This document shows, in pieces, positions 21,505 through 30,940 of a stretch of 64,000 nt of DNA. The DNA is taken from the NCBI RefSeq assembly GCF_003018235.1, contig NZ_CP027437.1, one strand, 5' to 3'. The DNA comes from Escherichia coli (lineage in GTDB: Bacteria; Pseudomonadota; Gammaproteobacteria; Enterobacterales; Enterobacteriaceae). A program made the translations under genes and the position numbers. Position 1 is the stretch's first letter. Each line of letters opens with the position of its first letter. The notes below the pieces were generated by a model. The model was not told the DNA's origin and made no database searches. It saw only the letters and a program-made list of their open reading frames with translations.

Positions 21505-22746
<1,242 letters not shown>

Positions 22747-23037: not shown

Positions 23038-25740
23038 ATGAAATTAAATATATTTACTAAATCTATGATTGGTATGGGGCTGGTGTGTTCCGCTCTGCCA
23101 GCATTGGCAATGGAAGCATGGAATAACCAACAAGGTGGTAATAAATATCAGGTTATTTTCGATGGCAAAATTTATGAAAATGCCTGGTGGGTTTCTTCTA
23201 CAAATTGCCCGGGAAAAGCAAAAGCAAATGATGCAACTAACCCATGGCGTTTAAAGCGTACCGCGACAGCTGCTGAAATTAGTCAGTTTGGCAATACACT
23301 TTCCTGCGAAAAGAGCGGCAGCTCATCTTCTTCAAATTCAAATACGCCTGCATCCAATACGCCGGCTAATGGCGGTTCGGCTACACCAGCACAAGGCACT
23401 GTTCCGTCTAATTCTTCTGTAGTTGCCTGGAATAAACAGCAGGGCGGTCAGACCTGGTATGTTGTCTTTAATGGTGCGGTATATAAAAATGCCTGGTGGG
23501 TAGCCTCTTCTAACTGCCCGGGTGATGCGAAAGGCAATGATGCCAGCAACCCATGGCGTTATGTTCGTGCCGCTACGGCAACGGAAATCTCAGAAACCAG
23601 TAATCCACAGTCCTGTACTTCAGCACCACAGCCTGCGCCGGATGTGAAACCGGCACCGGACGTTAAACCGGCTCCTGATGTTCAGCCAGCCCCAGCTGAT
23701 AAGTCAAACGACAACTATGCTGTCGTAGCCTGGAAAGGTCAGGAAGGTTCTTCTACATGGTACGTTATCTACAACGGCGGCATTTATAAGAACGCCTGGT
23801 GGGTAGGCGCGGCAAATTGCCCAGGCGATGCGAAAGAAAACGATGCCAGCAACCCATGGCGTTATGTTCGCGCGGCAACAGCAACAGAAATCAGCCAGTA
23901 TGGTAACCCAGGCTCCTGTTCCGTTAAGCCGGATAATAATGGCGATGCTGTGACTCCGGTTGATCCAACTCCGGAAACACCGGAAACTCCGGTGACCCCA
24001 ACCCCGGATAACAACGAGCCATCAACACCAGCGGATAGCGGTAACGATTACTCATTGCAAGCGTGGAGCGGCCAGGAAGGTAGCGAAATTTACCATGTCA
24101 TCTTCAATGGTAATATCTATCAGAATGCCTGGTGGGTTGGTTCTGAAGATTGCCCACGTGGCACTAGTGCAGAAAACTCCAATAACCCATGGCGTCTCGT
24201 GCGTACAGCTACCGCTGCGGAAATGAGTCAGTACGGTAACCCGACTACCTGTGAAATTGATAATGGCGGCGTCATTGTTGCGGATGGTTTCCAGGCCAGC
24301 AAAGCGTACAGCGCGGACAGCATCGTAGATTATAACGATGCACATTATAAAACTTCTGTCGATCAAGGCGCATGGGGCTTTGTCCCAGGCGGTGATAACC
24401 CGTGGAAGAAATACGAACCGGCGAAAGCATGGTCCGCATCCACTGTGTACGTGAAAGGTGATCGCGTTGTTGTTGATGGGCAGGCTTATGAAGCGCTGTT
24501 CTGGACGCAAAGTGACAACCCTGCTCTGGTTGCGAACCAAAACGCCACCGGTAGCAATAGCCGCCCGTGGAAGCCGTTAGGTAAGGCTCAGAGCTATAGC
24601 AACGAAGAGCTGAATAATGCGCCGCAGTTTAATCCAGAAACGCTTTATACCAGCGATACGCTGATTCGCTTTAACGGTGCGAACTACATTTCTCAGAGTA
24701 AAGTGCAGAAAGTTTCTCCTTCTGACAGCAACCCGTGGCGTGTTTTTGTTGACTGGACCGGAACCAAAGAACGTGTAGGTACGCCGAAGAAAGCGTGGCC
24801 GAAACACGTTTATGCACCGTATGTTGACTTTACGCTGAATACGATCCCGGATCTGGCTGCGCTGGCTAAGAATCATAACGTCAACCACTTCACGCTGGCG
24901 TTTGTGGTGAGTAAAGATGCGAACACCTGTCTGCCGACATGGGGTACCGCTTACGGTATGCAGAATTACGCTCAGTACAGCAAAATCAAAGCTCTGCGTG
25001 AGGCTGGCGGCGATGTGATGCTGTCTATCGGTGGTGCTAACAACGCTCCGCTGGCTGCTTCCTGTAAGAACGTAGACGATCTGATGCAGCATTATTATGA
25101 CATCGTTGATAACCTGAACCTCAGAGTCCTGGACTTCGATATCGAAGGCACCTGGGTTGCGGATCAGGCATCTATTGAACGCCGTAACCTTGCTGTGAAG
25201 AAAGTGCAGGATAAATGGAAGTCAGAAGGCAAAGATATTGCTATCTGGTACACCTTGCCAATTCTACCGACTGGCCTGACGCCGGAAGGGATGAATGTCC
25301 TGAGCGATGCCAAAGCGAAAGGTGTTGAGCTGGCGGGTGTGAACGTGATGACAATGGACTACGGTAACGCGATTTGTCAGTCTGCAAATACCGAAGGCCA
25401 GAACATTCACGGTAAGTGTGCAACGTCTGCGATTGCCAACCTGCATTCACAATTGAAAGGCCTCCATCCCAACAAGAGCGATGCAGAAATTGACGCTATG
25501 ATGGGTACCACGCCGATGGTTGGCGTGAACGACGTTCAGGGCGAGGTGTTCTATCTCTCTGATGCTCGTCTGGTCATGCAGGATGCGCAGAAGCGTAATC
25601 TCGGTATGGTTGGTATCTGGTCAATCGCGCGCGACCTGCCGGGCGGCACTAACCTGTCTCCGGAATTCCACGGCCTGACTAAAGAACAGGCACCGAAGTA
25701 CGCATTTAGCGAAATCTTCGCGCCGTTTACTAAGCAATAA
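23038..25740 (+). CDS. chiA: Periplasmic/secreted endochitinase ChiA (modular; GH18-like catalytic domain)
   Basis: 900-aa ORF with signal peptide, four ~65-aa repeated modules, Pro/Thr-rich linkers and C-terminal LDFDIEG motif. Confidence 0.9.
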   Translation: MKLNIFTKSMIGMGLVCSALPALAMEAWNNQQGGNKYQVIFDGKIYENAWWVSSTNCPGKAKANDATNPWRLKRTATAAEISQFGNTLSCEKSGSSSSSNSNTPASNTPANGGSATPAQGTVPSNSSVVAWNKQQGGQTWYVVFNGAVYKNAWWVASSNCPGDAKGNDASNPWRYVRAATATEISETSNPQSCTSAPQPAPDVKPAPDVKPAPDVQPAPADKSNDNYAVVAWKGQEGSSTWYVIYNGGIYKNAWWVGAANCPGDAKENDASNPWRYVRAATATEISQYGNPGSCSVKPDNNGDAVTPVDPTPETPETPVTPTPDNNEPSTPADSGNDYSLQAWSGQEGSEIYHVIFNGNIYQNAWWVGSEDCPRGTSAENSNNPWRLVRTATAAEMSQYGNPTTCEIDNGGVIVADGFQASKAYSADSIVDYNDAHYKTSVDQGAWGFVPGGDNPWKKYEPAKAWSASTVYVKGDRVVVDGQAYEALFWTQSDNPALVANQNATGSNSRPWKPLGKAQSYSNEELNNAPQFNPETLYTSDTLIRFNGANYISQSKVQKVSPSDSNPWRVFVDWTGTKERVGTPKKAWPKHVYAPYVDFTLNTIPDLAALAKNHNVNHFTLAFVVSKDANTCLPTWGTAYGMQNYAQYSKIKALREAGGDVMLSIGGANNAPLAASCKNVDDLMQHYYDIVDNLNLRVLDFDIEGTWVADQASIERRNLAVKKVQDKWKSEGKDIAIWYTLPILPTGLTPEGMNVLSDAKAKGVELAGVNVMTMDYGNAICQSANTEGQNIHGKCATSAIANLHSQLKGLHPNKSDAEIDAMMGTTPMVGVNDVQGEVFYLSDARLVMQDAQKRNLGMVGIWSIARDLPGGTNLSPEFHGLTKEQAPKYAFSEIFAPFTKQ

Positions 25741-26174: not shown

Positions 26175-26651
26175 ATGAAAGGTGATACTAAAGTTATAAA
26201 TTATCTCAACAAACTGTTGGGAAATGAGCTTGTCGCAATCAATCAGTACTTTCTCCATGCCCGGATGTTTAAAAACTGGGGTCTCAAACGTCTCAATGAT
26301 GTGGAGTATCATGAATCCATTGATGAGATGAAACACGCCGATCGTTATATTGAGCGCATTCTTTTTCTGGAAGGTCTTCCAAACTTACAGGACCTGGGCA
26401 AACTGAACATTGGTGAAGATGTTGAGGAAATGCTGCGTTCTGATCTGGCTCTTGAGCTGGATGGCGCGAAGAATTTGCGTGAGGCAATTGGTTATGCCGA
26501 TAGCGTTCATGATTACGTCAGCCGCGATATGATGATAGAAATTTTGCGTGATGAAGAAGGCCATATCGACTGGCTGGAAACGGAACTTGATCTGATTCAG
26601 AAGATGGGCCTGCAAAATTATCTGCAAGCACAGATCCGCGAAGAAGGTTGA
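26175..26651 (+). CDS. bfr: Bacterioferritin
   Basis: 158-aa ferritin-like ORF. Confidence 0.95.
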
Positions 26652-26679: not shown

Positions 26680-27356
26680 TTAATACGAGATCCAGGCCAG
26701 ATACCCCAAGTTTATCATGCTGCCGAGCGCAAGCCACGGGCCGAATGCGATAGTGGTTATAGTCCGGCGTTGCAGAAGTTGTGAAACGATGGCGTAACCA
26801 ATGCCACCCAGCGAGGCAATCAGCAGTATCATTGGCAACGTTTGCCAGCCACACCATGCGCCTGCAGCGGCCAGTAGCTTGAAATCACCGTAGCCCAATC
26901 CCTCTTTGTGATAAACTAACCAGACGCCCCAGTAAACACACCACAGCACCCCATAGCCAGCTACCGCGCCGTAAACCGCATCATGTAAATCAATTAATCC
27001 AGACTGCGCATTAAATACCAAGCCAAGCCAGAGCAGCGGTAAGGTGAGTTTGTCGGGCAGGAGCTGAGTGCGAAAATCAATAACACTGAGCGTGAGTGCG
27101 AAACAGAAATAGAGAAAGAGTGCGCCAGTCACGATGGGCGTGAAAGGTGCCAGGGCGCAGGCGATAGCAGCAGCAACGCAAAGTATCAGGGGCACTGTAT
27201 CATGCCAGGCATATTTTTTTTGCCTGAAATGAATCAATACCTGGCGAAACGTTAACGCCGTTTTATCCTCCAAAGGCGAGAGGTGATAGGCCATAGCATT
27301 AACAAAATAACCTGCCATAAAACCAACCAGAATGAAGAGCGGCAGTAGCATTGTCA

Positions 27357-27357
<1 letters not shown>
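26680..27357 (-). CDS. gspO: Type IV prepilin peptidase / N-methyltransferase of the type II secretion system
   Basis: 225-aa polytopic membrane ORF; last gene of the gsp operon. Confidence 0.9.
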
Positions 27358-29773
<2,416 letters not shown>

Positions 29774-29777
<4 letters not shown>

Positions 29778-30940
29778 TTCCCTGAGCTCCTTACTGTCCA
29801 TACGCCACTGACCGGATCTTTTTCTGTTTTTTCCATCGGAAGCCAGGGCTGTGCTAATTCACAGAAACGATCGATATTGGCTTCACTCTTAGCACTCATT
29901 TTTAAGGTCAGCGACTTTTGCTTCTGGCTATAGTTCGCCTCCATTAACTGCAGTTCAGGGTGTTCCAGCAGAAGTGTTTGTAAATGATAGAGCAACGGCA
30001 CAGCTTCAGGATATTGCTGAGCGAGTTGCTGCTTAAAGTAAAAACGAAAGTTGTGGGTGCGTTTGATTTGCGGGAAATAACGTTGCCAGGTTTCTTGCTG
30101 TTGTTGCTGAAGTTGATCTTCAATCTTAAGCGTTTGCCAGAGCGCGATGCCCCGGCTGCCAACAAAAGAAAGAATGGCGAGAACGAGACAGCTTACTGCC
30201 AGGCGGGCGAGCCATTTTCCCGATTTGCTTACAGTTTTCTGTTTACGAAAAACACCATGCAGCATGTCATAGCGCTGGAATGCAATATCGGCAGAATACA
30301 AACTCAGTGATGGTATTTCAGGATGCTGGATAAGTGGATTGGTCGCTGCAACGCCGTGAGGTGCTACACCATAACAAAGCATATTCTCAGGCGGAAACTG
30401 GGCAGCAAGATGCTGTAACCAGTGTTCATCCAGTTCATTGAAGGCATGTGCGGCACTGCGAATAAGCCAGCTTGTTTGCTGGTTAACCAGAGTCCAGCTA
30501 TCTCCTTCCCAGGGAAGATAGCAGCCATCTGGCAAAACCCGCGTCACGTTGAGTCCGGCAGTATGTAAACGCTCAAGATAGCGACTGAGTTTCTCCGACT
30601 GAATGCCTATCACCTCGACACTTTCGTTTTGTTTATCGACAACCGTCCAGTGCCAGTCCTGGGTGTTATCGGGTAACGTCTCCTCTGCCAGCCATTGCAA
30701 TGTTTGTGCGGTGAGTTTGTATTTGACGTTGGGCAGCGTGAGGGAACGATATAAAAGGCCCTCTGGTGGGATCAAAAGATGAACATTTCCGGCACCGGGC
30801 TGATCGGCCAGCGACTCCAGCGGAAGATCGTCTGTGAGCGTATGTACCGAAGATACGCTATCTGCGGAGAACGTCATCCATTCCCAATGCTTACGCAGCG
30901 TCGAGGAAGAACGTATGACCATCAACGATTCAGGCATCAC
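29774..30940 (-). CDS. gspL: Type II secretion system protein L
   Basis: 388-aa ORF in conserved gsp order. Confidence 0.9.

Follow-up and report, generated by a model that had tools for sequence, protein, structure and literature searches.

The chiA gene of Escherichia coli raises the question of what the repeated N-terminal half of its product is, and of how constant this half remains among strains. The question was addressed in a stretch of 64,000 nucleotides (nt) of E. coli DNA (RefSeq assembly GCF_003018235.1, contig NZ_CP027437.1), referred to in its whole length as the window. The chiA gene (also yheB), which encodes a bifunctional chitinase/lysozyme, was identified at 23038-25740 on the + strand by its open reading frame of 900 amino acids (aa) plus stop, by megablast, and by Pfam. 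Full-length nucleotide identity and a conserved chromosomal position both mark it as the orthologue of K-12 ChiA/YheB (WP_000773156.1), which lies at the same locus (tufA / bfd-bfr-gspO), is about 98% identical in DNA, and has the same domain order. The gene and its multi-domain architecture were already known, and the region is an ordinary E. coli chiA. Its N-terminal half probably encodes an array of glycan-binding modules on linkers, joined to CBM5/12 domains and a GH18 barrel.

The preliminary description of the window, made from the letters alone, had reported four tandem modules at 23110-24244, separated by repetitive linkers. Four tandem copies were recovered by a DNA repeat search, by BLASTP of the modules against one another, and by a profile. 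In the DNA, a single repeat family formed four in-register copies of 180 nt each (23101-23280, 23410-23589, 23713-23892, and 24046-24225), which were 60-74% identical and followed one another at spacings of 309, 303, and 333 nt. In the protein, the modules were pairwise 48-75% identical, with E values of 1e-23 to 1e-35. Modules 2 and 3 were the most similar pair, with identities of 75% in protein and 74% in DNA and a longest common tract of 29 nt. The profile placed four modules of 67 aa between 23110 and 24255, all on the + strand: module 1 at aa 25-91 (23110-23310; profile E 3e-42), which also belongs to the DNA repeat family, module 2 at aa 128-194 (23419-23619; E 3e-41), module 3 at aa 229-295 (23722-23922; E 6e-42), and module 4, the "chitin-binding domain 4" of the literature on adherent-invasive E. 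coli (AIEC), at aa 340-406 (24055-24255; E 1e-41). The start proposed earlier was thus retained, and the end was moved, since 24244 falls 11 nt before the last conserved cysteine. Invariant residues occupied 26 of the 67 columns across the four modules, including W4, NAWWV24-28, C33-P34, NPWR44-47, and C66. The array is preceded by a signal peptide, MKLNIFTKSMIGMGLVCSALPALA (aa 1-24; 23038-23109, + strand), for which a putative cleavage after ALA would agree with the start of the first module near residue 25 in the homologues.

The C-terminal part of ChiA is canonical. Three CBM5/12 domains, which the preliminary description had not mentioned, were identified by Pfam (PF02839, E 3e-14) at approximately aa 422-459, 462-515, and 534-570 (24301-24747, + strand), corresponding to "chitin-binding domains 5-7", and a search of PDB sequences matched this part to 2d49 and 6z40. 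The GH18 catalytic domain followed at aa 587-898 (24796-25731, + strand). It scored 40.9 bits for Glyco_hydro_18 (PF00704), above the gathering cut-off of 29.6, carried the DxDxE catalytic motif as LDFDIEG at aa 698-704 (25129-25149), and had solved relatives over its whole extent in 9buf_A (E 2e-46) and 2dsk_A (E 7e-38), which together place it among the GH18 chitinases. Hence, ChiA is composed of seven small binding-type domains followed by a catalytic barrel. The chitinase/lysozyme activity itself is known from published work on the proteins of K-12 and LF82 (PMC11486038, PMC11390585).

A domain search for CBM5/12 and GH18, as proposed in the preliminary description, had a divided outcome: GH18 was found, and the CBM5/12 character of the four modules emerged in fold and profile-profile comparisons but not in Pfam. 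When 1.84 billion representative proteins were scanned in full with HMMER, homologues of the module were returned in 48 of them at E<=1e-3; the module family is accordingly small. Nearly all full-length homologues are GH18 chitinases with a single module, which begins at about residue 25, immediately behind the signal peptide; they are either of the ChiA/YheB type or of the Chi2 type known from insecticidal toxin complexes. Most of them are secreted chitinases in which this one module is followed by further CBM5/12 domains. A solved structure exists for a single sequence homologue, the N-terminal domain of Yersinia entomophaga Chi2 (PDB 6ogd/9c4k chain C, approximately residues 25-89), which was matched by hmmsearch at E 1.9e-17 across 64 of the 67 positions, and to residues 24-94 of which module 4 was matched in the search of PDB sequences. 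Like the ChiA modules, it belongs to the N-terminal part of a GH18 chitinase. Unlike the E. coli modules, it is present in a single copy and has lost both cysteines (VPG for CPG, and no terminal Cys), and the chitinase to which it is fused is of a different GH18 subtype.

An AlphaFold2 model of the module, built from 33 family members, reached a predicted local distance difference test score of 95.2 and consisted of three strands and a C-terminal helix; the predicted core is thus the small three-stranded beta fold typical of CBM5/12. The top Foldseek match was again the Chi2 N-terminal domain, with a template modelling (TM) score of 0.81 and 43% identity over 67 columns, and the nearest folds after Chi2 were all chitin-binding domains. 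Profile-profile comparison by hhalign aligned the module with the second and third CBM5/12 domains of ChiA itself at E values of 8e-5 and 2e-5, and paired NAWW with the ALFW aromatic motif of the CBM5/12 domain at a probability of 61-76%. Since the first CBM5/12 domain gave a probability of only 2.9%, it is the other two domains, together with the fold, that support the relationship. The two conserved cysteines occurred together in 29 of the 33 family members and were both absent in three, and this co-occurrence suggests a disulfide that fixes the helix: Cys33-Cys66 probably staples the C-terminal helix to the core. In comparison with CBM5/CBM12 (PF02839; for example, the Streptomyces griseus ChiC chitin-binding domain 2d49 and the Serratia marcescens ChiB CBM5), the hidden Markov model of which misses the modules, the latter add a C-terminal helix and a conserved cysteine pair and constitute a separate, narrow family. 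The modules are regarded here, on the predicted model, as a putative divergent CBM5/12-type subfamily with a helical extension.

The duplications that produced the array appeared to be old. Four modules were also found in the orthologues P0116, P0117, and P0129, which are 71-77% identical, and in a neighbor-joining tree the modules grouped by position: the first modules clustered together, the last modules clustered together, and the second and third formed sister groups. As this grouping by position holds while the linkers of P0116, P0117, and P0129 are unrelated in sequence, the modules have been conserved since ancient duplications and the linkers have drifted. Other genera differed in module number, with three modules in Superficieibacter (P0001) and P0133, and one module in Enterobacter, Citrobacter rodentium, and others. 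Additionally, a metagenomic protein of 243 aa (P0002) contained three tandem modules and no catalytic domain, with NxxV in place of NAWWV, and may be either a fragment or a stand-alone binding protein.

The three linkers of the window allele measure 36, 34, and 44 aa, are rich in Ser/Asn, Pro/Ala/Asp, and Pro/Thr/Asp, respectively, and are all built in part from short DNA units. Linker 1 (aa 92-127; 23311-23418, + strand), in which Ser, Asn, Thr, and Pro predominate, contains SNTPA twice as 15-nt units at 23338-23367, a third linker repeat that had been absent from the preliminary description. Linker 2 (aa 195-228; 23620-23721, + strand) reads PAPDVK/PAPDVK/PAPDVQ in 18-nt units at 23632-23685, where Tandem Repeats Finder (TRF) reported a period of 18 over 23638-23672. 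Linker 3 (aa 296-339; 23923-24054, + strand) includes TPE TPE TPV in 9-nt units at 23967-23992, also a TRF repeat (period 9), within the repetitive stretch TPVDPTPETPETPVTPTPD (23953-24009). The repeats that had been noted earlier in linkers 2 and 3 were therefore confirmed at the DNA level, as was the length of 897 aa that had been given for ChiA of K-12. The K-12-type allele is 2694 nt long, and the difference from the 900 aa of the window amounts to exactly one TPE unit of 9 nt, which linker 3 of the window has in addition.

All three linkers differed among strains by whole units, in agreement with the earlier suggestion that linker copy number may vary. The frequency of the two forms of linker 3 was estimated with a linker-3 probe, for which matches in the 80-90% identity band were counted as short and those in the bands of >=90% as long; in the rows sampled, the lower band always had a span of 87 nt (including MG1655) and the higher bands always a span of 96 nt. 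By this measure, the short form was present in 1908 and the long form in 1164 of 3072 complete genomes (approximately 62% and 38%). The other two linkers varied more sporadically. For example, in strain FP4 linker 1 is longer by one PASNA and linker 2 is shorter by one PAPDVK, P0099 (804 aa) has a third linker-1 unit, and P0049 (894 aa) is missing one linker-2 unit. Approximately 25 of 3019 complete genomes fell within the band of identity that a 15-nt indel in linker 1 should produce, and approximately 46 of 3121 within the corresponding band for an 18-nt indel in linker 2; these genomes, about 1-1.5%, would carry unit indels. The linker lengths may change by slippage of the 9-, 15-, and 18-nt units.

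The number of modules varied as well, as the preliminary description had anticipated. Among the matches listed in the protein search, approximately 65 clusters of E. coli and Shigella alleles of 796-804 aa had three modules, in which the middle module was a hybrid of modules 2 and 3. ETEC1746 and GCA_013074445.1 are examples of strains for which alleles of this length have been reported. The point at which the hybrid switches differed between alleles and was located at VVAW, KNAWWV, NCPGDAK, or NPWRYVR. In the DNA, two tracts shared by modules 2 and 3 coincided with crossover sites, namely the 13-nt tract GCCTGGTGGGTAG (23491-23503, + strand), identical to 23794-23806, and the 29-nt tract GATGCCAGCAACCCATGGCGTTATGTTCG (23539-23567, + strand), identical to 23842-23870. 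The allele L006/P0057 follows module 2 up to the 13-nt tract and module 3 afterwards, and is otherwise nearly identical to the window, differing at four other positions. The 29-nt tract served as the crossover site in the allele L009/P0078, on a B2-like background, and in the allele of strain ETEC1746 (L014), which has a K-12-like background and is part of a closed chromosome. All three alleles are located at the normal chiA locus.

Among the 3122 complete genomes positive for chiA, one three-module allele was verified (ETEC1746) and at most three candidates, with the 29-nt junction, were identified by their identity band. In this counting with junction-spanning queries, megablast extended through the mismatched half of the query, which left identity and the number of places per record as usable measures. 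For the 13-nt junction, the counting gave no full-length match above 92.5% identity among the complete genomes. The reciprocal five-module junction of an unequal crossing-over was found in none of the 3122. Similarly, no protein longer than 900 aa was present among the 120 matches listed in the protein search. Several single contigs suggest further types of deletion, namely a putative hybrid of modules 1 and 2 (P0105), a putative deletion from linker 1 to linker 3 that leaves two modules (P0127), and putative out-of-register deletions (P0113 and P0128).

Two observations accompany the three-module alleles. In RefSeq, the ETEC1746 allele (NZ_CP122727.1, 451444-453834) is named "carbohydrate-binding protein" and has no gene symbol, and the four-module alleles are named chiA; surveys of gene presence based on names would therefore miss the three-module alleles. 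In addition, the alleles P0118-P0126 of Shigella dysenteriae and S. boydii (692-701 aa) combine a three-module N-terminus with a frameshift in GH18 and end in NAICRLQIPKARTFTVSVQRLRLPTCIHN, so that chiA is probably a pseudogene in these strains.

Together with the published work on ChiA, these features suggest a working model. ChiA requires the gsp locus for its secretion and its N-terminal domains for adhesion (PMC11390585), which these domains mediate through CHI3L1; mucin is likewise bound and degraded by the protein, binding to chitin and CHI3L1 has been assigned to the N-terminal domains collectively, and in K-12 the gene is repressed by H-NS (PMC11486038, PMC11390585). According to the literature, ChiA is exported by the neighboring Gsp type II secretion system. 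In the model, each module would present an exposed NAWW aromatic motif on its small three-stranded CBM5/12-like beta core. The Ser/Thr/Pro-rich low-complexity linkers would space the modules as flexible tethers, and seven tethered binding modules may provide a multivalent attachment of high avidity to polymers or glycans containing N-acetylglucosamine. Candidate ligands are chitin and peptidoglycan and, according to the AIEC literature, the N-glycans of CHI3L1 and mucin. Attachment by the modules would position the GH18 domain. The four modules would be old duplicates kept by selection, between which the linkers evolve freely, and rare in-frame deletions, by recombination or slippage at short tracts of identity between modules 2 and 3, would give rise to the three-module alleles.

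Several explanations compete with parts of this model. Internal similarity may arise by chance or from low-complexity composition without any true domain repeat, and the linkers are indeed of low complexity. The modules themselves are not, and the repeats in the DNA, the pairwise E values, the 26 invariant columns, the confidently predicted fold, and the homologues in other genera refute this explanation, which is given a negligible probability. A different alternative accepts the repeats and holds that the modules are protein-docking domains rather than carbohydrate binders, by which ChiA would be tethered to a component of the cell surface or of the secretion apparatus, or to host CHI3L1, with the module number setting reach or valency. 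The Chi2 N-terminal domain, the sole solved homologue (E 2e-17), is a compact mixed alpha/beta domain that works in protein-protein docking and not in sugar binding, as it docks Chi2 onto the toxin YenA1 via a beta-strand (PMC12705794). This weighs against glycan binding, as do the searches in which Pfam CBM_5_12 matched none of the four modules at E<=10 (modules 1-3 had no Pfam match at all at that threshold, and module 4 only a chance match to an unrelated family) and in which no NCBIfam model matched the ChiA protein. A family as tiny and specialized as this one likewise fits docking. A further point against the array as modeled concerns its export, as an IS21-family element interrupts the gspC-O operon of this strain, in which the secretion of ChiA may therefore be lost. 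The docking of Chi2 relies largely on an extra N-terminal beta-strand (PMC12705794), however, and the Chi2-type members lack both cysteines, whereas the E. coli modules retain the aromatic motif of the CBM5/12 type. The folds nearest after Chi2, all of them chitin-binding, and the homologues in which one module simply precedes the CBM5/12 domains of a secreted chitinase also speak against docking, which is considered unlikely. A slim chance is likewise given to an extension of this idea, in which the modules are not ordinary CBM5/12 sugar binders but belong to a narrow, uncurated family shared with the toxin-docking domain of Chi2, and serve mainly in docking to proteins or glycoproteins. Changes in module number (four to three) and linker length would then adjust adhesion to the host or retention at the surface, in the manner of a slow contingency-type variation of an adhesin. 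A glycan-binding array thus remains the preferred interpretation of the four modules.

The three-module alleles could also represent an assembly artifact, in which short-read assemblers collapsed the repeat and no true variation in module number exists. Most alleles of 799 aa derive from draft or Logan assemblies, and three-module alleles are apparently much rarer in complete genomes, given the single verified case and the three candidates at most, than in drafts. The DNA identity of modules 2 and 3 is no more than 74%, however, and as their longest common tract of 29 nt is too short, a collapse at the usual k-mer sizes is improbable. One three-module allele is part of a closed chromosome (ETEC1746) and another lies on a contig of 5.0 Mb, and the same allele recurs in at least 24 contigs from NCBI, ENA (k141 MEGAHIT), and Logan. 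Additionally, the junctions are in frame, fall within tracts of identity, and occur on at least three allele backgrounds. An artifact is therefore held to be very unlikely, and the three-module alleles are read as true variants of the array.

The domain map also locates the polymorphisms on which earlier comparisons of ChiA alleles were based. ChiA of AIEC strain LF82 has been described as having seven chitin-binding domains, a count that is credited in the papers to Low et al. (2013), with polymorphisms between LF82 and K-12 at sites 362, 370, 378, and 388 in "chitin-binding domain 4" and at 548 in "domain 7" (PMC11486038, PMC6393329). Modules 1-4 correspond to domains 1-4 of this scheme, and the three Pfam CBM5/12 domains to domains 5-7; the first four sites fall in module 4 and site 548 in the last CBM5/12 domain. 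At 362, 370, 378, 388, and 548, the window allele has Q, E, A, V, and A, the K-12 allele K, K, A, E, and V, and the allele of EC958 (sequence type 131) Q, E, V, V, and E, which are the residues reported for LF82. With this mixed set, the window allele belongs to neither the "pathogenic" nor the "non-pathogenic" type.

The distribution of chiA was surveyed by megablast in 5426 complete E. coli genomes. Any match was found in 3162 of them, and at least 80% of the gene was covered in 3107. The annotated chiA of strain MEW matched the window allele at 100% identity, and the other alleles had nucleotide identities of 95.8-98.6% to the window, including approximately 98% for the K-12 type. Damage by IS1 was observed at chiA in other strains: the element lies within the gene in H21, the 5' end is truncated in NCTC11023, and H40 retains only the first 61 nt. 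In strain MEW, IS1 replaces bfd-bfr-gspO through part of gspD, although its chiA is identical to that of the window. A side observation concerned CHI11_METAN ("Endochitinase 11" of Metarhizium anisopliae, 522 aa; P0136), which was 87% identical to ChiA over 57% of the query, with the match falling in the C-terminal part of the window reading frame; it has the appearance of an E. coli sequence that was deposited under a fungal name.

In the window, chiA is neighbored on its 5' side by tufA (21517-22746) and on its 3' side by bfd/bfr (bfr at 26175-26651), followed by gspO-C and the gspAB genes of type II secretion. The gspO gene (26680-27357) was assigned from its position, with which the gene order in reference genomes agrees, and GspM, GspL, GspD, and GspA were confirmed by Pfam. 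The IS21-family element lies at 27839-29640 on the + strand, between gspM (27357-27782, - strand) and gspL (29774-30940, - strand), and encodes an IstA-like transposase of 340 aa (rve and HTH domains) and an IstB of 260 aa (PF01695, E 8e-112). GspM of the window is 141 aa long and was matched by the T2SSM profile only from position 22, and the 5' end of gspM may have been cut.

These details leave the basic published picture of ChiA unchanged. What is modestly new are the frequencies of the linker units, the crossover sites mapped in the rare three-module alleles, the relationship of the four modules to the N-terminal domain of Chi2, and the fact that Pfam CBM_5_12 misses them. ChiA has been studied as a factor of adhesion and mucus degradation in Crohn's-associated and mastitis E. 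coli, with the focus so far on the five point polymorphisms. Its alleles also differ in length by entire linker units and, in rare cases, by an entire module, and such variation can confuse residue numbering (897 versus 900 aa), sizing by PCR, and automated naming.

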